A stretch of DNA of 64,000 bases from Spirochaetia bacterium (GTDB taxonomy: Bacteria > Spirochaetota > Spirochaetia > CADAEX01), in assembly GCA_963662265.2 (NCBI GenBank), contig CAXXHA010000035.1:160001-224000 (forward strand). Direction: 5' to 3'. The notes below the pieces were generated by a model that saw only the letters and a list, made by a program, of their open reading frames with translations, was not told the DNA's origin and made no database searches. Below are positions 3,001-20,432 of this stretch, in pieces. A program made the position numbers and the translations under genes. Position 1 is the stretch's first letter. The number at the start of each line of letters is the position of its first letter.

Positions 3001-3874
3001 TGCATCCCAGGCATCAATTGCTCTTGAAAATGCAAGACTTTATTCAGAACTTGAAAAACAGATAAATATTCAGAATGATCTTAAAAAGGAGGGGCGGGTT
3101 CAGATTCAGAAACTTATGGATTCTGATAAGTTTGCATCAATCGGCTTTCTTCTTGAAGAACTTGCACATGAAATAAGCAATCCTAACCAGGCCGTTCTTT
3201 TGAGATCTTCATACCTTGAAGATGCATGTGAAAACATGATGAAACTTGCTGATGAATATTATGAAGAGGAAGGTGATTTTGATGTCGGAATAGAAATGTA
3301 TTCCGAATTCCGTAAAAATTTCCCCGAAGCCTTAGCTGCAATTACATCATCTTCAAGGCAGATAAATGCAATAATAAAAAACCTGAAAAGCTATATAAAA
3401 AATGAAAATATTCATGAAATAAATCATGTTGATCTGAATGAAGTTGTAGAAGAAACTGTCAGGCTTTCTTCTTTTTTTATCAGAAAAAAAACTTCCCGGT
3501 TTTATTTTAACAGGGGGAATGTCCCTCCTGTAGTTGGTAACTTTCAGAGACTTCAGCAGGTCATGCTTAATCTTATTCAGAACAGTTGTCTGTCGCTTTC
3601 TTCTCAGGACAAATGTATTAATATAAAAACAGAGTTTGACTGTCAAAGAAAATATGCTGTTATCACAGTAAATGATGAAGGAGAAGGGATATCTGAAGAG
3701 GAGGTGTTGAGAGCTAAGGAAAGATTTTTTACTACAAGAGGGAATAGAGGAGGAACAGGGTTGGGGCTTTCTGTATCTGATTCCATAATAAAAGAACATG
3801 GCGGAGAACTTATAATCTCATCAGTTCCTGGTGAAGGTACTGAAGTAAAAGTCTGCCTGCCTGTTGAGAAATAG
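2..3874 (+). CDS. Giant AAA/STAND ATPase-GAF-histidine kinase, 5'-truncated by the window edge (paralog A)
   Basis: Frame is open from base 2 (SEKPIVIFLDDLQWCD, Walker B), so the track start at 95 is not the real start. Has GNPFF and FSHDRI motifs, a GAF domain (CIPII...QASIALENARLY), H-box LAHEISNP and HATPase boxes NLIQNS/DEGEG/GTGLGL. Confidence 0.93.
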   Translation, partial: SEKPIVIFLDDLQWCDRASYYLLNYILNLFHLYDNIFIIAAYRDNELNDELKTIVKSAVKRKENYLSISLDSLSADHTGEIINKTFNINNAFLKKIVYEKTDGNPFFINQFLLNCVREKSIYFNENTQSWDYDINVIDKVPPAADICLVSLEAGLKNNSEMIQLLKIISCNGGSSFEKEIYELSGLSMERYEKALYLALDAGYLKFTGSDNEKISFSHDRIYQASYSLIPDSKKYIYHKNTAEYLIRSLSDKETENRIFDITDQLIRSYKLKPDNEIVSDSQVLFLAEYCFRAGDRALSIAAWQSSLKYFKTALEVFSDTEWINHYDFSLKLYTRGAESALLNQEYELMGKLISRVKEKAHDILDIIPALKIRGMSYMARARLPDAVDLGKQILLLLGIKIPEKHIKLHTFIESLKVRFYLKYGNRNDPETDRKTAVLLDSLIFTFSPAYLAAPELFPVIVLKQIPLYGMNKTHPLYPFSMILYSLYLIASGNIDIAYKYGKEAHDLVVNNNHTYLIPKINFLFSLFVKHWKDPLSESMMLFREGYKNGISSGDFEYVTYCMSAETMNYIFSGDYLPEAFKQMSDNYRAVKNMGQQRNMETMNINNLVVSNLLAITGDWKSLSTDTFNEDSNLESRKAINETSYIGIYYLYKMILSVCYGNYSDGAEYLDKAKEYIKATVGQTSIQAYCFYSAIINSENYRLNNQRSRKQLEGILFSIKNLSQWAKHSPENQLHRLYHVKAEYYSIKKKYDKASMYFKLAIKTAGRNGYINEKALALERFAEFYFSRKMENEGVGYVVESFNAYKKWGAKRKLILMKEQYPEILSSYNTLLPHEEKERITVFTDFIDRDALAKATGTILSEIKQSSLFEKLLTILLQYAGAESGYLYVTVNGIDRFAASAETVSGKISVRTVSCFGSEKISKENSFYKSIVNYTGRTHEIFNLPSDNPEINPGLFSDYKDISVLCIPIIRQSKKQGIILLVNTINRSGFSKKTEQMIKVIASQASIALENARLYSELEKQINIQNDLKKEGRVQIQKLMDSDKFASIGFLLEELAHEISNPNQAVLLRSSYLEDACENMMKLADEYYEEEGDFDVGIEMYSEFRKNFPEALAAITSSSRQINAIIKNLKSYIKNENIHEINHVDLNEVVEETVRLSSFFIRKKTSRFYFNRGNVPPVVGNFQRLQQVMLNLIQNSCLSLSSQDKCINIKTEFDCQRKYAVITVNDEGEGISEEEVLRAKERFFTTRGNRGGTGLGLSVSDSIIKEHGGELIISSVPGEGTEVKVCLPVEK
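500..1372 (+). repeat. Near-identical tract shared with 5585-6457 (offset 5085)
   Basis: Direct comparison shows only scattered substitutions, while the flanks are clearly diverged. Bases 1-49 also equal 5086-5134. Confidence 0.9.
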
Positions 3875-3880
3875 TATAAT

Positions 3881-6800
3881 ATGATAAATAAAATATATAA
3901 ATTTGAAAAAAATGATAAATTTAATAAAGATGTATTTTATCAGAAACTGAATGAATACAATAGCGTTGAATGCTCCTCTCTTATCAGTCCTGTAATATAT
4001 GATGAATCAGGTAATACAGGGATACTGTCATCTGAGGATGATTCTTTTTTCCTCTATAAACCGATTGCAGAATATAAAAAATTAACAGATGAAGACTTTA
4101 TAAAATTCTGTATATCTGCTGTAGAGGCGCTTTCTGATCTCCATAAAAGTGGATCAGATTTTGGAACGATTCATCCGGTATCAATTTATTATCTTTCTGA
4201 CGGCCCTGTCAGGTTCCTTCTTCCCGGATTTATTCCGCTAAATGATGAGAGTGAATTACTTTATTATGCATCCCCCGAAGCATTGGCTGATTCCGGGGAA
4301 GAGGAAAGGTCTGGTTGTATAAAAGACTACTATACACTTGGAATAATATTGCTGGAAATATTTACAGGTGAAAAGAAATATTTATTCAATACTGCACTTG
4401 AAACATTTCACCGCAAGATGACAACTGTGACTTCCCCTGCATCAGGGGAAGGTATATTTAATATCTTTAATAAAATGACAGCACTTAATCCGCAAGAAAG
4501 GTACCAGAGTGCTTCAGAAATAATACATGATTTTAAATACTGTCTTAAAAAATGTTCAAGTTCAGAATCAGAAGAGGCCTCGCTGGAATTCCATGAAGAG
4601 AGAGATTTTTCATTTTCAGTTTTCAGAATATCATGTGAGATTGAGGGCCGTGAAAAAGAGACAGCTTTGCTTGAAAAATCATTCAGAGATACAGCAAATG
4701 GAAAAAGCCGTATTGTTTTTGTTAGCGGATATTCAGGTATCGGAAAAACATCTTTAGTAAGCAATTTTCTTGAAATTATTCACCCTGCTTCCGGTTTTAT
4801 CCTAAAAGGAAAATTTGATCAGTATAATAACAGTCCATATACTGGATTTGTTCAGATATTCAGTACTCTTTTCGGAAAGCTTCTTCAGTTTGATGAAGAT
4901 AAACTGTCGTTATACCGTGACAGAATAATAAAACTTCTCGGAAGAAGCGGAAAACTTTTAACAGATATTGTTCCTGTGCTTGAAAAAATTACAGGCTGTT
5001 ATTCAGAACCGGAAGTAACAGGTGCTGTTGAAGTTAATAATTATATTACATATATGTTTCATAAGCTGCTTTCTTTATTTGCATCTTCTGAAAAACCTAT
5101 TGTAATATTTCTTGATGATCTTCAGTGGTGCGATTGCGCATCTTTTAATCTTCTTAAAAATCTTTATAAAACTCTTTATATGTATGAGAATTTACTGATA
5201 ATAGCAGCCTACCGAGATAATGAAATAAACAGTGAACTTGAAAAAATATTAAAAGTCTGTTCAGAGGGAATGATTGATTATCTTAATATAGAACTTTCTT
5301 CTCTTTCTCCTGAGCAAACCGGTTGTATTCTTGATAAATCATTTTCTATAAACGATATTGTATTCAAAGAAATAATACACGAAAAGACAGATGGCAATCC
5401 TTTTTTAATCAACAGTTTTCTATCAAGCTGCTTTAATAAGAATTATATATATTTTAATAAAGATAAATGTATCTGGAATTGGATAAAAGAGGAAATTGAA
5501 AAAGAACCGTTCGCAGGGGAGATTTATAAACACTTTTCAAATACTGTTAAAAAATATGATCCCGACATGATTGAGCTACTTAAAATAATTTCCTGTAACG
5601 GCGGCTCCTCTCTTGAGAAAGAATTATATGAATTATCCGGATTGAGTATGGAAAAATATGAGAAAGCTTTGTATTTGGCGCTGGATGCCGGATATCTTAA
5701 ATTTACAGGATCAGATAATAAAAAGATATCATTTTCTCATGACCGTATCTACCAGGCATCATATTCTCTGATTCCAGACAGTAAAAAATATATATATCAT
5801 AAAAATACAGCTGAGTACCTTATCAGATCACTCTCAGATACGGAAACAGAAAACCGTATTTTTGATATTACTGATCAGCTTATACGAGCATATGAATTAA
5901 AACCTGATAATGAAATTGTTTCTGATAGCCAGGTTTTATTTCTTGCTGAATACTGCTTCCGAGCAGGAGATAGGGCTCTTTCAACAGCAGCATGGCAGCC
6001 TTCTTTAAAGTATTTCAAAACAGCTCTTGAAGTTTTTTCTGATACAGAGTGGATAAATCATTATGATTTTTCATTAAAACTTTATACAAGGGGTGCAGAA
6101 TCTGCTCTTTTAAATCAGGAATATGAATTGATGGAAAAACTCATTTCCAGAGTTGAAGAAAAGGCCCATGATATTCTTGATATCATACCTGCTTTGAAAA
6201 TTCGGGGAATGTCATATATGGCAAGAGCAAGGCTTCCAGATGCCGTAGACCTGGGGAAACAGATACTTTTGCTTCTTGGAATAAAGATTCCTGAAAAGCA
6301 TATCAAATTACATACTTTTATAGAGAGTTTAAAAGTCCGTTTTTATCTTAAATATGGCACCCGGAATGAACATGAAACGGATAGAAAAACAGCTGTTCTT
6401 CTTGATTCTCTTATATTTACTTTTTCACCGGCATACCTCGCAGCCCCGGAACTGTTCCCAATAATAGTTCTCAAACAGTTACCACTGTATGAAAAAAATA
6501 CAAGTTATCCTCTTTATCCTTTTTCTTTGATTCTTTACAGTCTTGTTTTATTTGGTTTAAGTAAAATTAAAGTTGCTTCTGTTTATGCTGAAAATGCTTT
6601 CAAGATTACTTTACAAAATAATAATAAATTTCTTTTACCTAAAATATCATTTCTGTTTACCCAGTTTTTAATTCACTGGACAATGCCATTATCCGAGACT
6701 ATAAAGTTTTTCCAGAAGGGATATAAAGATGGTCTGGTGTCCGGTGATTTTGAGTATGTTGGCTATACACTTGCCTGTGAACTCAATAATCGTTTATATA

Positions 6801-8962
6801 CTGGTGAATACCTACCTGATTTCTTAAAGGATGCTGATGATAAAATACTACTGGCCGGCTTGATTGGACAGGAAAGAAATGAAAAAGCCTGTGTTTTTTT
6901 CAAATTAATTGCTTTAAATCTGACTGGATTAACTGAAAATAGAAATGTTATTTCGATAGCGGAATTGAATGAAGATGAATTGCTTTTAAATATTACAGAA
7001 TCAAATGATAACAGCTTTATAGCTTTATTTTATCTTTTAAAAAGTTTTATAGCATATTTATATGGTGACAAGGAAAAAGCTTTAAATCTTATTATTAAGT
7101 GCAAGTCATATAAGAATGGATTGGCTGGGCAGTTTTCATATACTGTATTTTACTATTACAGGGCATTAATCATGCTTGATTGTTTTTCTGAATCCGCTGG
7201 TTGTGATAATAATGAAGTTTTTAAGGAAGCGAAAGTCTCTATAAAAAAGATCGCAAACTGGGCAAAGTACTCTCCTGAAAACCAGCTTCACAGGCTTTAT
7301 CTGGTTAAAGCTGAATATTATTCAGTTAAAGAAGAGTTTAAAAAAGCATCTGAATATTTCAGGCTTGCAATAGAAACAGCTGGAAAAAACAATTTTATTA
7401 ATGAAAAAGCTCTTGCTCTTGAAAGATTTGCATTATTCTATTTGTCCCGCGGAATGAGAAGCGAGGCATTCGGCTATATTATAGAGTCTTTCAAAGCATA
7501 TAAAAAATGGGGCGCCAAAAGAAAACTTATTATAATGAAGGAGCAATATCCTGTAATCTTAACAGCATATAACACTCTGCTTCCTCATGAAGAAAAAGGA
7601 AATGATGTTTTTACCGAGATTGTAGAGCATGATGCTCTTGTAAAAGCAACAGGAACAATACTTTCTGAAATCAAACAATCTTCATTATTTGAAAAACTCC
7701 TGACAATTCTTGTTCAATATTCCGGAGCTGAACAAGCTTATTTATATCTTACAGAAAAAGAGTATGACAGAGTCTCAGCATTGGCAGAAACTGTTTCAGG
7801 AAATATTACAGTTAGAATAATTAATAGTTATGATTTTTCACTTTCTGAAAAAAATGATTATTACAAACCAATTGTTAATTATACAGGAAGAACGCTTGAG
7901 ACTGTATGTATTCCTTCTGATGGTTCCGGTTGTGAATCAGAATTGTTTCCCAATTATAAGGATATTTCAGTACTGTGTATGCCTATAATCAGACAGAAGG
8001 AAAAGCAGGGAATTATTCTTCTTGTAAATAGTCTTAACAGATCAGGATTCAACAGAAAAACCGAGCAAATGATAAAAGTCATTGCATCTCAGGCATCAAT
8101 TGCGCTTGAAAATGCAAGACTTTACTCTGAGCTTGAAAAGCAGGTTGATATTCAAAATGAACTTGAAAAGGATAGGGATATACAGTTTCAGAAGCTTATG
8201 GATTCTGAAAAACATGCATCTATAGGAGTTCTTCTTGCTGAACTTGCGCATGAAATAAACAATCCTAATCAGGCTATTCTTTTAAGGTCTTCCTATCTTG
8301 AAGAGACTGGCGGGAATATTATGAAACTTGCTGAGGAATATTATGAGGAAGAAGGCGATTTTAATGTCGGGTCAGAAATGTATTCGGAGTTCCGTTTAAA
8401 TTTTACAGATGCATTATCTGCTATTTCATCATCTTCAAGACAAATTAATATAATTATTAAAAACCTTAAAAACTATATAAAGTCAGCTAATAATCCAGAA
8501 ATGAATATTGTTGATCTGAATGAAATTATTCAGGAGACAGTTAACCTTGCATCGTTTTTTATCAAGAAAAAGACAGATAGGTTTTATTTTGTCCCGGGAG
8601 ATGTCCCCGTAATCCTCGGAAATTATCAGAGACTTCAGCAGGTAGTGCTTAATCTGATTCAAAACAGCTGTCAATCGCTTTCTTCAAGAGGAAAAAGTAT
8701 TTCGATCCATACAGAATATGACAGTCAAAACAAATGTGTTGTTCTGATAATAGAAGATGAGGGGGAAGGAATTGAGGCAAAATTGCTTTCCAGTGTAAAG
8801 GGACGTTTTTTTACCACAAAAGAAAATAAACGCAGTACAGGGCTCGGGCTTTCTGTATCTGATTCTATAATAAAGGAGCATGGCGGCGAACTCCTGATAT
8901 CATCTGTTCCGGGAAAGGGTACAAATGTAAGGGTAATGCTGCCGGTTGAAAGAAATGACTGA
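3881..8962 (+). CDS. Degenerate Ser/Thr kinase-AAA/STAND ATPase-GAF-histidine kinase, 1693 aa (paralog B)
   Basis: N-terminal kinase-like lobe (YYASPE, DYYTLGIILLEIFTG, NPQERYQSA), Walker A GYSGIGKT, Walker B IFLDDLQW, GAF, H-box LAHEINNP, HATPase boxes. Confidence 0.93.
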   Translation: MINKIYKFEKNDKFNKDVFYQKLNEYNSVECSSLISPVIYDESGNTGILSSEDDSFFLYKPIAEYKKLTDEDFIKFCISAVEALSDLHKSGSDFGTIHPVSIYYLSDGPVRFLLPGFIPLNDESELLYYASPEALADSGEEERSGCIKDYYTLGIILLEIFTGEKKYLFNTALETFHRKMTTVTSPASGEGIFNIFNKMTALNPQERYQSASEIIHDFKYCLKKCSSSESEEASLEFHEERDFSFSVFRISCEIEGREKETALLEKSFRDTANGKSRIVFVSGYSGIGKTSLVSNFLEIIHPASGFILKGKFDQYNNSPYTGFVQIFSTLFGKLLQFDEDKLSLYRDRIIKLLGRSGKLLTDIVPVLEKITGCYSEPEVTGAVEVNNYITYMFHKLLSLFASSEKPIVIFLDDLQWCDCASFNLLKNLYKTLYMYENLLIIAAYRDNEINSELEKILKVCSEGMIDYLNIELSSLSPEQTGCILDKSFSINDIVFKEIIHEKTDGNPFLINSFLSSCFNKNYIYFNKDKCIWNWIKEEIEKEPFAGEIYKHFSNTVKKYDPDMIELLKIISCNGGSSLEKELYELSGLSMEKYEKALYLALDAGYLKFTGSDNKKISFSHDRIYQASYSLIPDSKKYIYHKNTAEYLIRSLSDTETENRIFDITDQLIRAYELKPDNEIVSDSQVLFLAEYCFRAGDRALSTAAWQPSLKYFKTALEVFSDTEWINHYDFSLKLYTRGAESALLNQEYELMEKLISRVEEKAHDILDIIPALKIRGMSYMARARLPDAVDLGKQILLLLGIKIPEKHIKLHTFIESLKVRFYLKYGTRNEHETDRKTAVLLDSLIFTFSPAYLAAPELFPIIVLKQLPLYEKNTSYPLYPFSLILYSLVLFGLSKIKVASVYAENAFKITLQNNNKFLLPKISFLFTQFLIHWTMPLSETIKFFQKGYKDGLVSGDFEYVGYTLACELNNRLYTGEYLPDFLKDADDKILLAGLIGQERNEKACVFFKLIALNLTGLTENRNVISIAELNEDELLLNITESNDNSFIALFYLLKSFIAYLYGDKEKALNLIIKCKSYKNGLAGQFSYTVFYYYRALIMLDCFSESAGCDNNEVFKEAKVSIKKIANWAKYSPENQLHRLYLVKAEYYSVKEEFKKASEYFRLAIETAGKNNFINEKALALERFALFYLSRGMRSEAFGYIIESFKAYKKWGAKRKLIIMKEQYPVILTAYNTLLPHEEKGNDVFTEIVEHDALVKATGTILSEIKQSSLFEKLLTILVQYSGAEQAYLYLTEKEYDRVSALAETVSGNITVRIINSYDFSLSEKNDYYKPIVNYTGRTLETVCIPSDGSGCESELFPNYKDISVLCMPIIRQKEKQGIILLVNSLNRSGFNRKTEQMIKVIASQASIALENARLYSELEKQVDIQNELEKDRDIQFQKLMDSEKHASIGVLLAELAHEINNPNQAILLRSSYLEETGGNIMKLAEEYYEEEGDFNVGSEMYSEFRLNFTDALSAISSSSRQINIIIKNLKNYIKSANNPEMNIVDLNEIIQETVNLASFFIKKKTDRFYFVPGDVPVILGNYQRLQQVVLNLIQNSCQSLSSRGKSISIHTEYDSQNKCVVLIIEDEGEGIEAKLLSSVKGRFFTTKENKRSTGLGLSVSDSIIKEHGGELLISSVPGKGTNVRVMLPVERND

Positions 8963-10373
8963 AAAAAATAAATATCCTGATTATCCTGTACTTCTTATTG
9001 ATGATGAGGTGGAAGTTCTTAAGGCAGAAAGTTCTATTTTGAAATTTGCAGGAATTGACAACATTATAACCTGCAGTAACAGTAATCAAGTTATGGAAAT
9101 TGTTGCAAAGGAAAAACCTGAACTTATTCTACTTGACCTTGCAATGCCGGGAGTCAGCGGCAGGGAAATACTTGCAATGGTCAGGGATGAATATCCTGAA
9201 ACCGCAGTAATTATTGTGACAGCATCTGATGATATTAAAAATGCAATAGAATGCATGAAGGGAGGGGCAGCTGACTATATGGTAAAAGCTGTTGAGAAGG
9301 AAAGGCTTATAAGCGGTGTTAAAAATGTCCTTGAAATTAATAGTCTAAAGCGTGATTATATGAATCTTAAATCCCGTTTTTTTATCTCTTCCTTAAAATA
9401 TGAAGAAGCATTTTCTGATATAATTACATGCAGCAGAAATATGAAAAAAATATTTTCTTATTCTGAATCCATTGCAAGGAGCAGCGAGACAGTTTTTATC
9501 TCAGGTGAAACAGGGACCGGCAAGGAGCTTCTTGCAAATGCGATCCACATAATAAGCGGCAGAGATGGAGAAATGGTAACTGTAAATACAGCAGGACTTG
9601 ATGATTCTGTTTTTGCAGATACACTTTTCGGCCATAGAAAAGGAGCCTACACAGGGGCATTGGAGTCGCGTGGCGGTCTTGTTCAGAAAGCAACTGACGG
9701 GACGCTGTTTCTTGATGAGATCGGAGACCTTTCTCTTTCCTCCCAGGTAAAACTTTTAAGGCTTCTTGACCAGCATGAATATTATCCTATGGGTTCGGAT
9801 GTCGTAAAGAAATCTGATGCAAGATTTATTGTTGCAACAAACAGGAGTATGAAAAAGATGGTGGAAGAAGGCAGTTTTAGAAAGGACCTTTATTATCGGC
9901 TTTCAACTCACGAAATATCCATTCCTCCGCTAAGGGAAAGAAAGGATGATATTAAAATACTTCTTAATTATTTTCTTGATGCTGCCTGTGACGAGCTTGG
10001 TAAAACACGTTCTTCATATCCTCCCCAGCTTGAAACGCTTCTGGAAAACTACTTTTTTCCGGGCAATGTAAGAGAAATCCGTTCAATGGTATATGATGCT
10101 GTCAGCTGTCAGAAGGGAAATATGCTCTGTATGGAATCATTCAGAGAAGCGATTGGAAAAAGAGAGTCTCTTGATTCTTTTGAACATTCCTCTGTTTTTG
10201 ACTGCGGTTTAAGTAAAGCGGATAAAATTCCGACACTGCATGAGGCTGACTGGATATTAATTGATGAGGCTTTAAAAAGGTCCGGCGGAAACCAGACAAT
10301 TGCCGCGGGGATGCTGGGGATTACAAAGCAGGCGCTGAGTAAGAGACTGCAGCGGCGGGAAGGTGGGGAGTAG
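8955..10373 (+). CDS. Sigma54-dependent NtrC-family response regulator (REC-AAA+-Fis HTH)
   Basis: LLIDDE...LLDLAMP receiver, GETGTGKE, FGHRKGAYTGA, LFLDEIG, FRKDLYYRL, FPGNVRE, C-terminal GNQTIAAGMLGIT. ATG at 8955 overlaps the kinase stop. Confidence 0.96.
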   Translation: MTEKNKYPDYPVLLIDDEVEVLKAESSILKFAGIDNIITCSNSNQVMEIVAKEKPELILLDLAMPGVSGREILAMVRDEYPETAVIIVTASDDIKNAIECMKGGAADYMVKAVEKERLISGVKNVLEINSLKRDYMNLKSRFFISSLKYEEAFSDIITCSRNMKKIFSYSESIARSSETVFISGETGTGKELLANAIHIISGRDGEMVTVNTAGLDDSVFADTLFGHRKGAYTGALESRGGLVQKATDGTLFLDEIGDLSLSSQVKLLRLLDQHEYYPMGSDVVKKSDARFIVATNRSMKKMVEEGSFRKDLYYRLSTHEISIPPLRERKDDIKILLNYFLDAACDELGKTRSSYPPQLETLLENYFFPGNVREIRSMVYDAVSCQKGNMLCMESFREAIGKRESLDSFEHSSVFDCGLSKADKIPTLHEADWILIDEALKRSGGNQTIAAGMLGITKQALSKRLQRREGGE

Positions 10374-10531
10374 ATGGTTCCCTATGGGGCTTGTGTTTGC
10401 TGATTATGGTTAGTTGTCATAACAGATTTATTGTTAATAATATTCTAATGTATTTTGTAGTTTGTGATGAATAACAATAAGTCTTCTCCCTATATACTAT
10501 GAATCAGGCCTTTTATGATAGATTTTAATGG

Positions 10532-10575
10532 GTCAATAAATGTTTATTATTTACTATATGTCAACAAAAGTTGTC
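10532..10575 (+). promoter_or_regulatory. Tandem putative enhancer (UAS) sites
   Basis: GTCAATAAATGTTTAT (10532) and GTCAACAAAAGTTGTC (10560). The same motif pair lies before two other sigma54 promoters. Confidence 0.7.
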
Positions 10576-10648
10576 AGATATAAATATTGAAATTTTAACT
10601 GTATAATATAAATCCTTTTAGTATAAGAAAATATATAACTTTCAGACC

Positions 10649-10664
10649 CGGCATTAAATTTGCT
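10649..10664 (+). promoter_or_regulatory. Sigma54 -24/-12 promoter of the tlpA-like operon
   Basis: CGGCATTAAATTTGCT: GG(10650)-N10-GC(10662), followed by an SD and ATG 10709. Confidence 0.8.
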
Positions 10665-10708
10665 TATATGAATAAGTAAATTATCAATTATAAAAATCGG
10701 GAGTTATT

Positions 10709-11246
10709 ATGAAAAAACACAACAATATATTTTATGGATACAAGAGTCCTTCTTTTCGATTTAAACTGTATTCAGTATTATTTCTTTTAACCGCCACAGT
10801 ATCAGTAGTTTCACTTGATAAGGGAGATGAAGCAGCCAATTTTGCAAATATTGATCTATCTGGAAATTTTGAATTCTCAAAAAATTATATTGGAAAAGAT
10901 TGGGTGATAATGGACTTTTTTGCTACTTACTGTATTCCCTGTAAAGAGGAGATCCCTGAACTTGAAGCTCTTTATTCAGAATTCTCTGAAAAAGGACTAA
11001 GATGTTTTGTTTTTTGCAACAGATAAAAACGGGAAGAATGTTGTCGATCCATATTTTAAGGCAGTCCCTACAACGTTAAAAGTTCTTCTTGATAATTACA
11101 TGGTAACAGCAAAGCGCTTTAATGTTGAATCAATTCCTACTGTTTTTCTTATAAATCCGGAAGGTAAGATCGCTTTTAAAGCAGTTGGCTATAAAAAAGA
11201 ATCAATTGAAAAAATGCATGCTATATTGTCAGAAGCATTGAAATGA
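10709..11246 (+). CDS. TlpA/ResA-family thiol:disulfide oxidoreductase, split by one +1 frameshift
   Basis: DFFATYCIPCKEEIPEL (CxxC) and SIPTVFLINPEGKI. Removing one T from the run at 11010-11015 joins ORFs 10709-11026 and 11007-11246. Confidence 0.85.
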
Positions 11247-12154
11247 ATAGAATAATTCTGGTTCTTCTTTGTTTGTTCTTTATTCTGATCAGCATTGCCT
11301 ACTCAGCTGGTTCCGGGGAAAAAAAAGTTGATATATATTACTCTTCATCTCTTAACGGAAATCTTGACGGCTGTGACTGTAAAGACCACCCTAGAGCAGG
11401 TCTTGTAAAGCGGGCACATTATTTAAGAAATATAGAAAGAATAAAGTCCCTGCTTCTTGATGCTGGTGATGTTTTTGATTCTTATGAAGATTCTCTTCTT
11501 TCTGATTATATAACAGAGAGTTATGTGGAACTTGGTTATGATCTTGTTGCTATAGGAGATCAGGAACTTTCAAACGGGACTGAATATCTTTTAAAAAAAG
11601 TTAATAAAGGGCTTTTCAGGTGCAGCAACTTACAGCTTAAAACTTTATCAGGGGCGTTTAAGAAAATAACATCACCTCCAATTATAATTAAAAGGGGTGG
11701 GATAACTTTTTCTGTTATATCATTAATTGATCCTTCTGTGTTCATGTTTTATTCTGGAGAACTTAAGAAAACAATAAAAACAGATAATCCTGAATCATCT
11801 CTGTCTGATCTTCTAAAAGATAAAAAGGTTCAGTCTTCAGAAGTAAGAATACTTGTCTTTCATGGAACAATAAAATATGCTCGTATGCTTGCTAAAAGAT
11901 TTCCTGATCTTGATATTATTATTGCTGGGCATGAGCAAAAGTTAATTGATATGGAATATGTCGGAAATACTGTAATTTTATCTCCGGGGGAGGATGGGAA
12001 CAGGCTGGGGAAACTGACTGTTACATATACTGAAGAACAGCTTTTTTTAAAAAATAACTTTATTTTATTTGAATATATGAAAGATCCTGATGATGGCAAT
12101 ATCCGAATGAAGATTTATAAATATCTTGATGAAATGAAAAATAGGCTTAGGTAG
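11243..12154 (+). CDS. Exported UshA/5'-nucleotidase-like metallophosphoesterase-fold protein with CxC motif
   Basis: Signal peptide, GNLDGCDC..PRAGLVKRA, LLLDAGD, AIGDQE, IIIAGHE. Lacks the C-terminal 5'-nucleotidase domain. Confidence 0.75.
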   Translation: MNRIILVLLCLFFILISIAYSAGSGEKKVDIYYSSSLNGNLDGCDCKDHPRAGLVKRAHYLRNIERIKSLLLDAGDVFDSYEDSLLSDYITESYVELGYDLVAIGDQELSNGTEYLLKKVNKGLFRCSNLQLKTLSGAFKKITSPPIIIKRGGITFSVISLIDPSVFMFYSGELKKTIKTDNPESSLSDLLKDKKVQSSEVRILVFHGTIKYARMLAKRFPDLDIIIAGHEQKLIDMEYVGNTVILSPGEDGNRLGKLTVTYTEEQLFLKNNFILFEYMKDPDDGNIRMKIYKYLDEMKNRLR

Positions 12155-12168
12155 TTAGATTTAAAAAA

Positions 12169-12190
12169 CAGCTGCCGGATATGACAGCTG
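12169..12190. terminator. Hairpin between convergent genes
   Basis: CAGCTG-N10-CAGCTG with an A-tract on the left. Confidence 0.5.
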
Positions 12191-12205
12191 ATTTAATGAA
12201 ATACT

Positions 12206-12669
12206 TTAATAAATGTGTATGTATCGGGGAGCTTCATCTCCAGTATAATTCCAGCCGCTGCTGTTCCCATATTTGTCATAAATCCGAAGTTGCCAGTATA
12301 CGTCATTACCTGCAGTTAATGTTGTTGTAAATTGATATTCGGACTCAGTGACCGGATGCACTGCTGCAGAGGGGAGATCGTTTAACTGATAAAGCCCATC
12401 TGAAATCATATCTTGCAGCATTTTTAAGGTCAGGCCAGTCAAAAAGCGGTGTTGTGTCATTTGTCCAATCTAAGGGATGCCAGTTATATACACTTTCAAT
12501 ATCTCTTATTTCATAATCGCCTTCTCCTGTGACAGGATCGGTGTTTTTTTACCAGACACCATCCCTGATAATCTTCGCCATCCTTATCATATGGATTATC
12601 ATACCCGTGGCATGATAATATTAAAAATATAATGCTTATAATTATTATTAATTTAGAAAGTAATTTCAT
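12206..12669 (-). CDS. Lipoprotein of unknown function (frameshifted in this assembly)
   Basis: ATGA overlap with the upstream stop. MKLLSKLIIIISIIFLILSC lipobox. Two +1 shifts join it to ORF 12206-12460. Confidence 0.65.
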
Positions 12670-13787
12670 TGTTTTTCCTCCAGTGTAGATAGTTTACTTT
12701 TCAGTGTTATAATCTTGTTTTGGAAATCATTGGTTTTATCTTTTTTAAACCACATGATTGCTGATGTGATTAAAAATATATCGCCTGTAGTAATATATAT
12801 GATCCATAATTTATCATAAGTCTGGGTATCCTCTGTGTGTTTTTTCAATGTCTTCCTTGAAAATGGATTTTGCATAATTATCATAAGCTTCATCACTTTT
12901 CTCCTTGCAATAGTAAGCAGCACCAACAGATGCTATTCCCGCCCCTGTAAATACATATTTCAGGGACCTTTCTCCTCTTTGCTGCTTTTTTTTCTTTACT
13001 CAGCTTTTTCTCGAAGTAGGCTATTTCATTATTCAATCTGTTTTTTTTCTGTAATTCTGTCATACTCAGCCTTCTTCTTTCTGGACTTAGTAAGCAGTTT
13101 GTCAGCACGTGATTCAAGGTCTGCAAATGTGTATTTGCTGTCAATCATTGTTTTCAGGTGTTCTTCAACTTCTGAAGGGAATATTGATATGTCATCTTCC
13201 GAGATTGTTGTATATCGTGATTCAAGTTCCTCCTGCGTTGTAAGGAATACAGCGTATGTATCTTTTCTAAGCTCATCGCTGTAAGCAGTTGCGCTTGCTT
13301 TTTCTGTCTGTTTAAGTCCTGCTAGCTTGTAGGCAAGATCATCTGCAGAGTCAGGAAGTTTATCCATGGATGTAAATACAACTTTTTCCGCCTTAAGATT
13401 CTGCCCCAATGTTACATCGATGATTTTTGCATTTAGGGACAAAACCTGTTCCTACGCTTGAGAGTGTTTCCCAGTACTATTTTTTTCTGCTGCCAGGAGT
13501 TTTCCTATTTCTACAGCGCAGTTTTCATCTGTACAGCCTGTGAGTGTAAAAGCCTGCGCATTGAGTATTTCCTCTATCTGGTTCTGTTCTATTACAACAA
13601 ACTCTTCTGTCTGAACAAGTGCTGTTTCAAAAAGGCTTGATGCTGTTACTGCTTCTATTTCTGATACACCTACACCGCTGAACGGGATTACCGCCATTCT
13701 CGGTTTGTCCTGGGAGTAGACTGCAGATGCAAGGGAAATAAATAAAATCACATTTAGATATGTAACATTTCTTATAACTTTATTCAT
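12666..13787 (-). CDS. CsgG/HfaB-like exported protein with coiled-coil C-terminus (about 6 frameshifts)
   Basis: Signal peptide then PRMAVIPF...FVVIEQNQIEEILNAQAFTLTGCTDENCAVEIGKLLAAE. ORFs 13452-13787, 13029-13442, 12893-13144 and 12666-12926 join after removing single inserted bases. Confidence 0.75.
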
Positions 13788-13812
13788 GTTAATACTCCTT
13801 ATGATTATAGTT

Positions 13813-13828
13813 AGCAGGATTTGTGCCA
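13813..13828 (-). promoter_or_regulatory. Sigma54 -24/-12 promoter of the CsgG-like operon
   Basis: Minus strand reads TGGCACAAATCCTGCT, near consensus. AAGGAG SD follows. Confidence 0.85.
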
Positions 13829-13901
13829 GTGGTTGTTTTATTGTAAAGTTATGTTTTATAAGGAGTTATTTAATAATTTCCTTTATACATGTCATTATTA
13901 T

Positions 13902-13948
13902 GACAATAAAAGTTGACTTGGATTGTCGTAAAGAGACATTTTATTGAC
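13902..13948 (-). promoter_or_regulatory. Tandem putative enhancer (UAS) sites
   Basis: Minus strand GTCAATAAAATGTCTC (from 13948) and GTCAACTTTTATTGTC (from 13917). Confidence 0.7.
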
Positions 13949-14093
13949 AATAATATATTTTCGTTTTTTAGGAATATTATTCCTGGATGAAATAATCGAA
14001 GGTTTTATTATGATTTGTAAAATAAAAACTTGATTTCCGTTGAAACCTGTCCATATAAATATTTTTGCAGTTATTTTGACTGCGGAGAAATCT

Positions 14094-15598
14094 ATGAAAA
14101 AGTTTTTTTTTATCTTTCTTTTTTATTATTACTGTTTCTGCTTCTATTCATTGTTATGAAATATCTCAGTCTTCTTGGGATATTGGAACATTATCTTCAA
14201 GTTCCGGAATAAAAAAACTGGAAATTGAAATATATAATAATTCTGGAGAAAAAATAAAAATTGATATTATATCAACCTGCAGCTGTTTGTATTCAGATAA
14301 ACAAAATATTAAACTTTCAGCTGGTAAATCAGTTTCTGTTGTGTTTTTTTTTTGATCCTCTGGAAGAGAGAGGCAAAATATCCAAATACATGATTCTCCG
14401 TTCAACACAGGTCGGATTTTCTAAAGCTTTATTTGAAGTAACAGGTTTTGTTGAATCAGAATCAATTTCTGAAATTGTAAAAAACGGGCTTGATAATAAA
14501 AGCAGTTTTAAAGCTCTTGTAGAAAAAAATAATACTGAAAATACTGATATATCTGATAATGATGTATATATTAAATATTTTTACTCTGAAGGCTGTCGGA
14601 GCTGTTTACGGTTTTTTAAATGTTACTGTTCCTTCTCTTGAAAAAAAGTCTTAACAGAAAGATTTATGTTGATAGGCTGAATATTCTTGATGAAGAAATA
14701 TATAAAAAATATATTTCTGTTCTTTTTAAATTCGGCAAGGAGTATAATGCTGATATCCCTGCACTTTTAATAGATGAAAAACTTTTTAATGGTGAAGAAC
14801 AAATTACATCCGAATTTGAAAATGCGGTTAGAAATTATAAGGGGCTTTCTAAAATTCCAGATACTGAAACTAATACAGTAAAGGAATTTGTAATTGCTTT
14901 TATGCCTGTTGTAATAGCTGGTTTTCTTGATGGAATAAATCCATGTGTATTTTCAACACTTTTATTTCTTATATCAAGCCTTGTTCTTGCAGGAAAAAAA
15001 AGACAGGAGATTTTTTTTATAGGTATTTTTTTATTCAGCTTCAGTTTTTTTTAACTTACTTTTTAATAGGTCTTGGTCTTTTTCACGGATTGAGAAGTGC
15101 TTCTGTTTTCCCAGTAGTTTCTGAAATAATTAAATGGATTCTGATATTTTTTCTTTTAATAATTGCAGTGCTGAGTCTGTATGATTTTTTTCAAATCAGA
15201 AAAGGCCGTGCTGTTGATATTGTACTGCAACTTCCTTCCTTTTTGAAACTTCAGATCCACAGTGTAGTAAGAAAGCAGGCTAGAAACACCTCCATTATCG
15301 CCGGATCAGTTGTGCTGGGATTTCTTGTTTCGTTATTTGAACTTGCCTGTACAGGACAGATTTATTTTCCAGCAATTGCTTATATGCTTAAAACAGGGCA
15401 GAGAAGCGGGTATTTTTATTTAATAATTTATAATGCAAGTTTTATATTACCTCTTATGTTTGTATTTTTTCTAATCTACAAGGGAACAGGCTCTAAAGTT
15501 ATCACTCAGTTTTTTCAGAACCATATGGCAGGTATAAAAATATCTTTGAGTCTTTTATTTTTTTATTCTTAGTGGAGTTGTATTTTTTTTTAAATTAA
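14094..15598 (+). CDS. DUF1573 (Ig-like)-thioredoxin-like-CcdA/DsbD membrane fusion (multiple frameshifts)
   Basis: GGAG SD and ATG 14094. Reconstructed motifs IISTCSCL, YFYSEGCRSC, AGFLDGINPCVF, FELACTGQIY. The shifts fall in T/A-rich runs. Confidence 0.75.
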
Positions 15599-15628
15599 AG
15601 GTTTTCATGTTAAGGAAGTTTTTCAGTT

Positions 15629-15673
15629 GTCAACTAATGTTGTTTATAATTTAGTTTGTCAACTTTTATTTAC
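15629..15673 (+). promoter_or_regulatory. Tandem putative enhancer (UAS) sites
   Basis: GTCAACTAATGTTGTT (15629) and GTCAACTTTTATTTAC (15658). Confidence 0.7.
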
Positions 15674-15749
15674 AGTACTACTCGTATGTATAAATGTATA
15701 TTTTGTTGTAAATTGTTTTACAATAAACAGTTATCAGAAATGTAATAAT

Positions 15750-15765
15750 TGGTCTGAAATTTGCA
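15750..15765 (+). promoter_or_regulatory. Sigma54 -24/-12 promoter of the LPP20 lipoprotein unit
   Basis: TGGTCTGAAATTTGCA: GG(15751)-N10-GC(15763). Confidence 0.72.
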
Positions 15766-15809
15766 TAGTAACCTTTGAAGAATAATTAAATTATCAGAAG
15801 GAGATTATT

Positions 15810-16394
15810 ATGTTTAAAAAAATGATTATTGTTTTTGCAGCCTTTTTTGTTATTACTGCATGCGGATCCTCTCCAGCTCCAGCTCTTCTTGCAGCGCCTT
15901 CCCCTCACCCGCAAAAGCAGAATACAGATGTTCCCCAGTTTTTTCTACTGCCTCCTGTTGCAGAAGATGCGTTCTACGGGGTTGGATCTGCAAAAATGTC
16001 ATCAATTGATATGTCAAAGACAATGTCTATCTCAAGAGCGCGTGATGATATTGCAAGACAGGTAAATCTTCAGGTTAAGAATGCAATCACAGATTATGCA
16101 CAGGAAGCTGGAGCAAACAGTTCACAGACAATAAAGTTTGTTGAAACAGTTTCCCGGCAGATAGCAGAAGCAAAACTTCAGGGAGCAAAACCTAAGGAGA
16201 TGTATGTTTCAAAAGACGGTACAATTTATGCTCTTGTTGAATATCAGATTTCAAATTTTAAATCAGATGCAGATGAAATATTTAAACGTAATGAGGAAGC
16301 TGCATTTTCTGAATTCAAGGCAGCTCAGGCTCTTGAAAAACTTGATATGGAATTAAAGAATAATCCGACTAAATCTGTTCCAGTAACAGAGTAG
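15810..16394 (+). CDS. LPP20-family lipoprotein
   Basis: Lipobox ITAC. VPQFF...FYGVGSA...RARDDIARQV pattern typical of LPP20. Confidence 0.8.
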   Translation: MFKKMIIVFAAFFVITACGSSPAPALLAAPSPHPQKQNTDVPQFFLLPPVAEDAFYGVGSAKMSSIDMSKTMSISRARDDIARQVNLQVKNAITDYAQEAGANSSQTIKFVETVSRQIAEAKLQGAKPKEMYVSKDGTIYALVEYQISNFKSDADEIFKRNEEAAFSEFKAAQALEKLDMELKNNPTKSVPVTE

Positions 16395-16496
16395 TAAAAC
16401 TTGTGCCTTGATATAAGTAATGTAAGTTTTGAATTGAACTAATTAGACAAGTTTATTTAAAAATGTGAATAATAAATAAAATTATAGAGGATTATT

Positions 16497-17291
16497 ATGT
16501 TTACAATCAGTACAAGAAAAGATTATTCCGATGCAGATAAGATATCTGATATTGATCACTTTAGAGAAGTAGATACTGATACATTATCATACGGGAAAAA
16601 AATAAATTTATATAATTTGATTACAGCTAATGAAAAAGTCTTAATCCTTGTACATGGTTACAATAATGTATTGGAAGATACGCTTGAAGCATACCGTCAT
16701 ATACATCAAAGAATTTTTGATTACTCTGTAGGGTATGATAGAGTTATAGGATTTCTGTGGCCAGGGGGTGATTCAAAACTTGATTATCATGTTCCCAGGC
16801 AAAGAACAAAAGAAATTGCACCCAGGTTTGCATATCATTTAAGAAAAATATCAAATGTCTGTAAAACAAAAGTAGATATTATGTGTCATAGTATGGGTGT
16901 GCGAGTGGTGTTTGAAGCGCTTAATTATGTTGATTTTGAAGATATCGGTAATGTTTTTACACTTGCAGCAGCTGTTGATAATGAAAAAATTGAAATAGAT
17001 GAAAAATATTTTGAACCGGGACAAAAAGCTGATAACTTATTTGTTTTTCATTCAAAGCGGGATAATGCATTAAAATATGCTTATAAACTAGGTGATTTTG
17101 ATTCCGCTCTTGGACTTACCGGACCGGAAAATCCTGCTCTTATTCTTGCACATAATAAAAATACAAGAGTAATTAATTGCAGTAAAAAAATATTTAAACA
17201 TGGTGCATACAAGTATAAGAAGGATGTGTACATAACTATAAAAAATCATCTTGAGAACAATTCATATTATCAGATATTTGATACTCTTTAA
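16497..17291 (+). CDS. DUF900-family alpha/beta hydrolase
   Basis: VLILVHGYNN, FLWPG, nucleophile elbow CHSMG, LAAAVD, HSKRDNAL, ALGLTGP, HGAY. Confidence 0.85.
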   Translation: MFTISTRKDYSDADKISDIDHFREVDTDTLSYGKKINLYNLITANEKVLILVHGYNNVLEDTLEAYRHIHQRIFDYSVGYDRVIGFLWPGGDSKLDYHVPRQRTKEIAPRFAYHLRKISNVCKTKVDIMCHSMGVRVVFEALNYVDFEDIGNVFTLAAAVDNEKIEIDEKYFEPGQKADNLFVFHSKRDNALKYAYKLGDFDSALGLTGPENPALILAHNKNTRVINCSKKIFKHGAYKYKKDVYITIKNHLENNSYYQIFDTL

Positions 17292-17334
17292 AATTATTAA
17301 GTATTGGACAATACATTTAATCAAGGATTTATAA

Positions 17335-18264
17335 ATGATATACATAGTTTCCAACAGGCTTGTTAATCATGAAAAAAATGATGAAGAAGTCTTTTCTGAT
17401 GATTTTGACAATACCGGGTATGAGGTATTGAGGGTTGCAAGAGCTTTTTATGTTGACAGCGGCGAGTGGAGTATTGAGCTTGTTGATGAGGAATTCGGCA
17501 GAGGGAAATCTGATATCCCCCTTTATAAAATATTCAAGGAAGTTTCATTATCCGATAGAAGTTGTGTTGTATATATTCACGGTTATGATTTATCTGTAAA
17601 GGCTATTCTTGAAAAATGCATTGAAATTGAAAGGTATGGTGTAAATGTTATTCTTTTTTTATGGCCTCCAAATCCGGGCCCCCAGTTTTTATTTTCTAAA
17701 ATAAACATTTGCAAAAAAGCCCGGAAAAATGTCAGAAGATCTGTCATTGCTCTTGAAAGGTTTTTTGAAATATTATGTGACTTTTCAGAAGTTAACGGCG
17801 ATTCGGGACAGCTGAAAACACTTGCTGTTAACGGACTAGGGAACTATCTTCTTCAGTCTCTTGTTGTAAGTCCTGATTTCGATTTCCAGTGCTCAGTTTT
17901 TAAAAATATTCTTATTCACCAGGCCGATGTTGACTGTATAGGCCATGAAGTATGGCTTGATAAGCTTGGAAAAAAAAGCAGAGTGATTGTCACTATTAAT
18001 GAGACAGACAGTCTTCTTGATTATTCCAATACAGGCAGTCCTGAAAAACTCGGTAACTGTAACCGTTATATGGTGTCAAAATATGCAGGTTATTATGATT
18101 TTACAGAAGCTGATGGTGCTGAAAATGAAAACCGCCTCTGGGGTGATCCTGCGAAAAGAAACAAACATATAAGAGATTTTTTTACAGATGTTTTTACCGG
18201 TACAAAGATAAGAAGAAACGGTATAGGGTTTAACCCTGTTGATAACTGCTTTGAAGTGATATAG
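17335..18264 (+). CDS. DUF900-like alpha/beta hydrolase, probably inactive
   Basis: VVYIHGY, FLWP, HQADVD, INETD. The elbow reads AVNGLG with no Ser. Confidence 0.7.
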   Translation: MIYIVSNRLVNHEKNDEEVFSDDFDNTGYEVLRVARAFYVDSGEWSIELVDEEFGRGKSDIPLYKIFKEVSLSDRSCVVYIHGYDLSVKAILEKCIEIERYGVNVILFLWPPNPGPQFLFSKINICKKARKNVRRSVIALERFFEILCDFSEVNGDSGQLKTLAVNGLGNYLLQSLVVSPDFDFQCSVFKNILIHQADVDCIGHEVWLDKLGKKSRVIVTINETDSLLDYSNTGSPEKLGNCNRYMVSKYAGYYDFTEADGAENENRLWGDPAKRNKHIRDFFTDVFTGTKIRRNGIGFNPVDNCFEVI

Positions 18265-19367: not shown

Positions 19368-20432
19368 TCAGGCAGACAGCCTGAATATAAGCTGTGTCCT
19401 GCTTTCTGCTCCTGTTTTGTTGAAGATATTCCATACATGTCTTTTTACTGTTGATTCTGCTGTCTTCAGCCTCTGTGAAATATCCCTGTTTGAGAGGCCC
19501 TGGTAGATATATTCTATAATTTCTGCTTCCCTGTTTGTTAAACTGTACCTCTGTTTTATAGTGTTGATATCAAGTACCGGTAATCCTTGTTCATTGTGTT
19601 CATACAGAGTTACTGTGTATTGCGGTTCTCCTGGCAGAAGCAATCTGTATTCCGGTGATGAGATTATCCCCATTCTTAAATTATATCTGTATTCGTCCTT
19701 ATCCAGGTATATTTCTGATTTTCCCGGAAGACTGATCTGGTTTTTGAAAAAATTGAATCTTTCTGAAAATATTCTTGAATTTATACTGTTTCCTTTTACC
19801 GGGTTTTCCGAATATTTTTCTCCGAAAAGATTACTGAATGCCTGCTTTATTTTTTTGCCGCAGGATACAACCTCCCCGTAATTATTCAGGTAGGCAATGC
19901 AGTCGCTTCCGGTTTCTGGGTATAGTGTTTTTCTGAAACTTTCTTCCAGAAATGAAGCTGCAAAGTTGAATATTTCCACATCATTTTTTGAAAATCTGCT
20001 GCTGTTAAGACCTGCTCTCGCAACTCCGAAAAAACCTGATATCCTGTTGTTTATTCTTATTGGAACATAACAGCCGTCGGAAGCCGGTCTTGTTTTCTGG
20101 GTCTCATGAATAAATTCTCTGGAATGGGGGACTTCCTTGTCAAGAAGCTCTCTGAAAACTACTGTCCTGTTTGATTCGATCATGTTTTCAAGGATAAAGT
20201 CTTTTTCGAACAGTGATTGATATACATCATTGAATTCATCAGGATTGTTTGATATCTGCAGGTTTTCCTGTATCCTGCTGTTATTGAAAACAACAGTTGC
20301 AAAATACTGAATATCCAGAAGCCTGCAAATATCCGGGGTAAGTTCTGTCAGGAATTTCCTGTCCAGTTGTTCAGAATATATTTTATTGACAATCTTTTTT
20401 ATAATATCAGACTGCCGCTTATTGATAATCAT
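19368..20432 (-). CDS. LuxR-family HTH regulator with N-terminal sensor domain
   Basis: C-terminal LTNREAEII...GLSNRDISQRL...TVKRHVWNIFNK. Confidence 0.9.
   Translation of the reverse strand: MIINKRQSDIIKKIVNKIYSEQLDRKFLTELTPDICRLLDIQYFATVVFNNSRIQENLQISNNPDEFNDVYQSLFEKDFILENMIESNRTVVFRELLDKEVPHSREFIHETQKTRPASDGCYVPIRINNRISGFFGVARAGLNSSRFSKNDVEIFNFAASFLEESFRKTLYPETGSDCIAYLNNYGEVVSCGKKIKQAFSNLFGEKYSENPVKGNSINSRIFSERFNFFKNQISLPGKSEIYLDKDEYRYNLRMGIISSPEYRLLLPGEPQYTVTLYEHNEQGLPVLDINTIKQRYSLTNREAEIIEYIYQGLSNRDISQRLKTAESTVKRHVWNIFNKTGAESRTQLIFRLSA

Follow-up and report, generated by a model that had tools for sequence, protein, structure and literature searches.

A 64,000-nucleotide stretch of the genome of a Spirochaetia bacterium (contig CAXXHA010000035.1 of assembly GCA_963662265.2, positions 160,001 to 224,000 of the forward strand; the whole stretch is called the window below) carries three sigma-54-type promoters, P1, P2, and P3, each preceded at a nearly fixed distance by a pair of sites that start with GTCAAY. 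The three enhancer/promoter units are confined to 5.2 kb, and the arrangement that they share is real and far beyond chance. Judging from how such sites and the recognition helices of related activators vary together, we consider it very probable that the six sites serve as the enhancer, or upstream activating sequences, through which the response regulator encoded next to them, at 8955 to 10373, acts.

The six 16-mers and the three GG-N10-GC elements lie exactly where an initial annotation, made from the letters alone, had placed them, with the same sequences. The first pair begins 159 bp past the stop codon of the regulator gene. At P1, on the forward strand, the distal site GTCAATAAATGTTTAT (10532 to 10547) and the proximal site (16-mer GTCAACAAAAGTTGTC from 10560; 18-mer TGTCAACAAAAGTTGTCA at 10559 to 10576) precede the -24/-12 element CGGCATTAAATTTGCT (10649 to 10664, with GG at 10650). 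P2 lies on the reverse strand and comprises the distal site GTCAATAAAATGTCTC (13933 to 13948, read from 13948), the proximal site (16-mer GTCAACTTTTATTGTC from 13917; 18-mer AGTCAACTTTTATTGTCA at 13901 to 13918), and the element TGGCACAAATCCTGCT (13813 to 13828, GG at 13827). P3, again on the forward strand, has the distal site GTCAACTAATGTTGTT (15629 to 15644), the proximal site (16-mer GTCAACTTTTATTTAC from 15658; 18-mer TGTCAACTTTTATTTACA at 15657 to 15674), and the element TGGTCTGAAATTTGCA (15750 to 15765, GG at 15751). The spacings first reported were reproduced: the two sites of a pair start 28, 31, and 29 bp apart at P1, P2, and P3, respectively, and the proximal site starts 90, 90, and 93 bp upstream of the GG. 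The spacer had been described as AT rich, and the three upstream regions indeed have a G+C content of 22%. With +1 set at 25 nt after the first G of the GG, transcription is predicted to start at about 10675, 13802, and 15776, which would put the centers of the proximal sites at about -107.5, -107.5, and -110.5 and those of the distal sites at about -135.5, -138.5, and -139.5. The GC of the -12 element is 47, 26, and 47 bp from the start codon (ATG at 10709, 13787, and 15810), and each start codon has a Shine-Dalgarno sequence.

The rarity of this combination was assessed over both strands of the window genome (3.77 Mb, 38.5% G+C, 90.6% complete). GTCAAY words are common (2789 occurrences), yet only 10 same-strand pairs have a spacing of 26 to 33 bp, and 3 of these are the pairs of P1 to P3. 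Only these three are followed by GG-N10-GC 85 to 100 bp downstream; among the other seven, the element occurs at 35 bp in one and at 110 bp in one and is missing from five. A count of five-letter words gives the same picture. Seven such words are common to the three upstream regions within 4 bp of the same GG-anchored place, whereas 500 shuffles averaged 0.31 and never exceeded 4. Among the seven are GTCAA at -118, -121, and -122 and GTCAAC at -90, -90, and -93 relative to the GG.

The quality of the sites was scored as mismatches to the 18-mer palindrome TGTCAAYNNNNRTTGACA, of the type TGTCAAY-N4-RTTGACA. Across the genome, 3 sites come within one mismatch of it, 53 differ from it at two positions, and 500 differ at three. 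The proximal sites of P1, P2, and P3 have 1, 2, and 1 mismatches; those of P1 and P3 are two of the three best matches in the genome, and that of P2 is among the 53. The distal sites are poorer, with 3 mismatches at P3 and more than 3 at P1 and P2 (4 and 5 by hand count). The earlier description of two imperfect palindromes per promoter therefore holds for the proximal sites only, each of them a good TGTCAAY-N4-RTTGACA palindrome; at the distal sites, the left half is strong and the right half weak. A sigma-54-like element (at least 9 of 12 positions) lies 60 to 250 bp away from just 4 of the 56 sites with at most two mismatches. Three of the four are the proximal sites of P1 to P3, all at 90 to 93 bp; the remaining one, at 205 bp, is weak. 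The motif is not at background frequency, and the expected association with -24/-12 elements about 90 bp away was found, exclusively at the P1-P3 locus.

The promoters themselves were scored out of 12 against the sigma-54 consensus TGGCACG-N4-TTGCW. P1, P2, and P3 score 9, 10, and 9 and are the only elements reaching at least 9 between 10300 and 19500. The sigma-54 gene, rpoN, on which the reading of the initial annotation depends, is present: an intact 466-amino-acid (aa) open frame on contig C10 of the same genome matches Sigma54_DBD at 1.4e-54. A possible fourth sigma-54 unit, serving the DsbD-like gene at 14096 to 15572, was rejected, as no forward-strand GG-N10-GC scoring at least 9 lies between the P2 sites and that gene.

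The regulator (8955 to 10373, forward strand; start of the listed open reading frame [ORF], TTG at 8946) is an NtrC-family sigma-54 activator. The domain features by which that family is recognized, namely, a receiver with an acidic pocket and Lys, an AAA+ domain, and a Fis-type helix-turn-helix (HTH), are found in it. Pfam matches are to Sigma54_activat (6e-55), Response_reg (2.1e-24), and HTH_8 (7.1e-8, residues 437 to 470), and the AAA lid is matched too. Receiver residues D20, D64, and K114 are invariant across 11 aligned homologues, in which the Walker A motif (here GETGTGKE) is also conserved. The GAFTGA loop reads GAYTGA, an F-to-Y variant; the aligned homologues have GAFTGA, GAYTGA, or, in two rows, GAYSGA/GAFSGA, and the Y variant is expected to be active. 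The recognition helix, ITKQALSKRL, occurs once in the window genome. The protein falls below every NCBIfam equivalog cut-off, including those for AtoC, NtrC, ZraR, and GlrR. It scores 290.6 bits against a cut-off of 558.6 for the NtrC model TIGR01818 and is therefore not NtrC (for NF008176, the values are 247.7 and 620). Against the GlrR model NF011695, it reaches 232.7 bits versus a cut-off of 763, in a match that ends at residue 394 and leaves the HTH uncovered.

The assignment of the sites to this regulator draws on comparison with its relatives. Orthologues were sought in 2 genomes of the same genus, in 17 others of the same family, and in other families of the class. None was found in the same-genus and same-family genomes, where the best matches are paralogues of about 32 to 38% identity; orthologues of 42 to 52% identity occur in ten other families of the class. 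(An initial protein scan of genome contigs with the regulator had found no relative; the orthologues came from a separate genome search.) In an alignment of 11 orthologous proteins, only that of one spirochaete locus (L023) shares the recognition helix, LGITKQALSKRL, and only L023 has GTCAAC after the regulator gene. At this locus, CGTCAACATAAATTTACA starts 92 bp before the GG of AGGCACGCCTTTTGCC, and the operon behind the promoter holds a CsgG/PEGA lipoprotein gene. A search with the back-translated helix in 185,579 species genomes and a metagenome collection gave 11 matches: L035, the DNA of L023 again, with the same arrangement; three activators, L033, L039, and L042; and seven non-activators (five HTH proteins of about 155 aa, one 137-aa protein, and one chance match in a short frame). 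The four foreign activators with this helix come from a spirochaete metagenome-assembled genome (MAG), an Acidobacteria MAG (L033), and two metagenome contigs (L039 and L042). In all four, the motif lies just past the stop codon, with a sigma-54-like element further on. L033 has the perfect palindrome TGTCAATAAAAATTGACA at +73 after the regulator stop, L039 has CGTCAACTTAAATTGACC at +7 and CGGCAACTTTAGTTGACC at +25, and L042 has TGTCAACTTTTTTTTCCA at +25; in these three loci, the sigma-54-like element follows 194 to 254 bp after the stop.

Activators with other helices provide the comparison. GTCAAY occurs within 300 bp after the stop codon in none of the 10 spirochaete orthologues with other helices (42 to 52% identical), and a site with at most three mismatches occurs in 1 of the 10 (L029, TGTAAACATTTTTTTACA, helix MTRQALGNRL). 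Relatives of the L033 genome supplied 19 homologues, whose aligned parts show 47 to 75% identity to the L033 protein; such a site was again found in only 1 (L053, helix ISRQALNRRL). A site with at most three mismatches thus follows 5/5 activators with ITKQALSKRL and 2/29 homologues with other helices (Fisher one-sided P = 7.5e-5, for related genomes that are not fully independent). This covariation of helix and operator across phyla supports the assignment of the sites to the adjacent activator, as the initial annotation had proposed, and suggests TGTCAAY-N4-RTTGACA as its operator. No published description of that operator was found in the literature searched, the coverage of which excluded subscription journals.

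Several observations made at these loci stand somewhat apart. The strong GTCAAY half is promoter distal in all six window sites (10532 to 15673), and the same polarity is seen in L023, L042, and L053; a symmetric dimer site does not require it. At L029, TGTAAACATTTTTTTACA is followed, within about 17 to 210 bp after the regulator stop, by TGGCACGTTTTTTGAT, whose -12 element reads GA, not GC. The helix MTRQALGNRL and TGTAAACATTTTTTTACA may be a variant helix/operator pair. The first gene behind the matching promoter of L023 (9710 to 10435) encodes a 241-aa protein with a sigma-54 interaction domain and an AAA lid and with neither receiver nor HTH. The five small proteins recovered by the helix search (L032, L036, L037, L040, and L041; about 155 aa) are phage-like HTH proteins that share the 11-residue stretch GITKQALSKRL, and their loci are mutually homologous. 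About 45 to 60 nt after their stop codons stands GGTTGACAAATC with an A-rich word, probably a -35 box.

The most likely mechanism, by analogy with well-studied systems, is the classical NtrC-type enhancer. In response to a putative signal, the adjacent giant kinase would phosphorylate the regulator. Dimers of the regulator would then bind the strong palindromic site near -108 and, cooperatively, the weaker half-palindromic site near -138, oligomerize into an AAA+ ring, and loop over the AT-rich spacer. The ring would remodel and open the closed complex of sigma-54 RNA polymerase at the -24/-12 element, so that the P1, P2, and P3 units may be switched on together. The kinase in question, a 1693-aa protein with an AAA_16 ATPase, GAF, and HATPase_c (3881 to 8962, forward strand; ORF and Pfam), is likely cognate, as the end of its gene overlaps the start of the regulator gene. 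It stands in tandem with a paralogous giant kinase (AAA_16 or STAND-like ATPase, GAF, and HATPase_c) at 95 to 3874, whose true start is uncertain, as its ORF begins only at base 95 of the window, without the N-terminal third of the second kinase.

At glnAp2 of Escherichia coli, NtrC sites II and I are centered at -108 and -140 (PMC5159524), that is, as two dimer sites about three helical turns apart, and the predicted centers here (-107.5 to -110.5 and -135.5 to -139.5) match them. The regulator also has the same REC/AAA+/Fis-HTH build. The site sequence differs, however; the targets are of the envelope type rather than belonging to nitrogen assimilation; and the place of NtrB is taken by the 1693-aa AAA_16/GAF kinase. 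Two details of the spacers may be added. The word ATGTATAAA is common to P2 (about 13882 to 13890, reverse strand) and P3 (about 15686 to 15694, forward strand), where it stands 27 to 28 bp past the start of the proximal site; this is about the same step as that from distal to proximal site, and P1 lacks the word at that offset. No integration host factor site was recognized in the spacers against WATCAR-N4-TTR, by inspection by eye only.

A second point of comparison is GlrR (QseF) of Enterobacteriaceae, for which three TGTC-N10-GACA binding motifs lie over 100 bp ahead of the glmY sigma-54 promoter, next to the two-component genes of GlrR itself (PMC3045617). In its outer bases and its 18-bp span, TGTCAAY-N4-RTTGACA agrees with that motif, and both systems have a link to the envelope. 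The fit to TGTC-N10-GACA applies to the perfect site of L033 and to the 18-mer consensus; no site in the window has both outer tetramers intact. The inner bases differ, and there are two sites here compared to three. The regulator is 31% identical to E. coli GlrR and has a different recognition helix, so that the likeness is one of working, not of family membership. It extends to L033, where the target appears to be a small noncoding transcript, as glmY is. About 200 nt without an evident ORF (L033, 5495 to 5705, reverse strand) follow the sigma-54 promoter beside the same-helix regulator and end in a strong hairpin and U-run (folding z = -4.8). This stretch may encode a small RNA that depends on sigma-54 and recalls the GlrR-glmY pair; an Rfam scan of L033, the window, L039, and L042 returned no family match. 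In the computationally reconstructed sigma-54 regulome of Desulfovibrio vulgaris, most promoters are within 100 nt of the closest enhancer-binding protein (EBP) site (PMC4641369). There, too, activator genes stand beside their targets, with conserved sites upstream of -24/-12 promoters. The phyla and motifs differ, and "TGTC" is absent from the main text of that report.

The gene set of the three units points to the cell envelope. The P1 unit (10709 to 12154, forward strand) comprises, by Pfam, a thioredoxin/TlpA-like gene and then a UshA-like metallophosphoesterase gene (11243 to 12154); its match to NCBIfam NF041198 (104 bits) is under the cut-off of that model, and a terminator scan places a terminator-like hairpin past the unit, at 12169 to 12190. 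The P2 unit (12206 to 13787, reverse strand) is a CsgG-N-terminal-like lipoprotein gene, split over several frames, and the N terminus of its product shares 59% identity, over 99 aa, with the CsgG/PEGA protein (588 aa) of L023. The P3 unit (15810 to 18264, forward strand) has genes for an LPP20 lipoprotein paralogue (15810 to 16394), a DUF900 alpha/beta hydrolase (16497 to 17291), and a 309-aa protein (17335 to 18264), three genes that would be cotranscribed if the unit is an operon. Just past it, at 19368 to 20432 on the reverse strand, is a gene for a LuxR-type regulator whose N-terminal domain is autoinducer-binding-like or GAF-like.

The LPP20 gene allows a comparison with genomes that lack the regulator. 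Relatives of the gene (76 to 80% nucleotide identity) occur in all four searched genomes of the same genus and family, and neither the sites nor GG-N10-GC are found upstream of any of the four. A search for the regulator in these genomes gave only paralogues (32 to 36% identity) in three, and the best E value in the fourth is in the same range. The window genome itself has a second LPP20 copy (contig C29, 69270 to 69861), whose product is 75% identical to that of the window copy; it is syntenic with the relatives and also has neither the sites nor GG-N10-GC upstream. The window copy is therefore best seen as a paralogue that has come to lie downstream of the enhancer and promoter.

A number of findings weigh against the enhancer interpretation or narrow it. 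The distal sites have no convincing right half. Elements scoring at least 9 of 12 number 716 genome-wide and are thus not rare; P1 and P3 are only moderate matches to the consensus, and the promoter evidence lies in position, not score. The 90- to 93-bp geometry recurs elsewhere only in the spirochaete relative L023, and in L033, L039, and L042, the best sites are 168 to 223 bp from the GG, with only weak candidates at about 82 to 85 bp. The comparison covers few genomes, some of them mutually related. The regulon is local as far as a genome of 90.6% completeness allows, which makes the restriction less than absolute. Finally, most of the target genes are frameshifted, which may mean either decay of the regulon or an error in the assembly.

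This last point leads to a different account, in which the architecture is real and the regulon is a decaying relic, an enhancer left without functional products because its targets are true pseudogenes broken at homopolymers. The thioredoxin-like (10709 to 11246), CsgG-like (12206 to 13787), and DsbD-like (14096 to 15572) genes are interrupted, often at T/A runs of 8 to 10; the thioredoxin-like gene, for example, breaks near 11015 into pieces at 10709 to 11026 and 11007 to 11246. The region from 14001 to 16000 alone has six homopolymer runs of at least 8, compared to a genome mean of 0.32 per kb, whereas no frame break interrupts the regulator gene or the 8.8 kb of the two kinase genes. These intact genes contain no run of at least 8, however, and for the kinases, intactness fits decay and assembly error alike. 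Moreover, the second LPP20 copy, on another contig, is also frame broken, at a short run, which suggests general indel errors in the assembly, and the sites and promoters are well preserved. The breaks could be due to assembly error, pseudogenization, or slippage, and we regard a relic as unlikely, if well short of negligible.

It is less probable still that the sites are a genuine enhancer belonging to another sigma-54 activator of the same genome. There is no shortage of such proteins, as the search for relatives scored 39 matches in the window genome and a motif filter retained 9 intact frames resembling bacterial EBPs, and enhancers can act far from the gene of their regulator. However, none of the remaining eight frames has the helix; a degenerate HTH search found only the regulator at 8955 to 10373; and the motif accompanies the helix into two other groups at the level of phyla, always beside the helix-bearing gene.

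Another possibility takes the GTCAAC/GTTGAC words for -35 boxes (TTGACA) of opposite-strand sigma-70 promoters, or for repressor-type sites, and the link to GG-N10-GC as incidental. Its starting points are that RTTGACA contains the -35 consensus and that GGTTGACAAATCGAAA-like words, which resemble -35 boxes, follow the five small phage-like HTH genes sharing the 11-residue helix. Yet sigma-70-like matches in 10300 to 16000 are at background (31, compared to 24.9 with a standard deviation of 5.5 in shuffles), and the six sites are touched by just one match, a weak one; on these grounds, the -35 reading was rejected. The opposite-strand direction at P1 would also run into the 3' end of the regulator gene, and this possibility does not account for a GG-N10-GC at a fixed 90 to 93 bp in L023 as well as at the three promoters, so that we give it very little credence. 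Chance, or a promoter cassette duplicated three times, is hardly credible: the regions are AT rich and align at 70% mean column identity, but chance is excluded by the genome-wide counts, and the cassette was rejected because conservation is confined to the site words and the promoter, with runs of identical columns only at GTCAA, TCAAC, and the GG/TGC words, other conserved letters scattered, and no extended similarity.

We therefore return to the six sites as the enhancer of the adjacent response regulator. A broader scenario is conceivable, which we put forward tentatively and hold to be more doubtful than probable. A clade of activators with the helix ITKQALSKRL, spread across phyla, would read TGTCAAY-N4-RTTGACA. 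In the spirochaete, it would form part of a horizontally acquired envelope-remodeling module that captured the duplicated LPP20 gene under sigma-54, acquisition being suggested because the searched members of the same genus and family yielded no orthologue; in Acidobacteria, it would drive a structured noncoding RNA of about 200 nt, as an independent parallel to GlrR-GlmY.

The understanding of sigma-54 activation is not changed by these results. The arrangement is that of the textbook, and its value is in being useful rather than surprising, for a type of regulator that is unstudied. The classical -108/-140 geometry of the NtrC enhancer appears to be reused outside Proteobacteria, and one paralogue of a core lipoprotein gene lies downstream of an enhancer and a -24/-12 promoter, both of them absent from its syntenic copy and from four relatives. 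For the uncharacterized subfamily to which this activator belongs, we offer a sequence-level operator, TGTCAAY-N4-RTTGACA, whose pairing with the recognition helix holds in spirochaetes, an Acidobacteria MAG, and two unassigned metagenome contigs. For the spirochaete itself, the predicted outcome is a small, bounded regulon of envelope genes that is directly testable.

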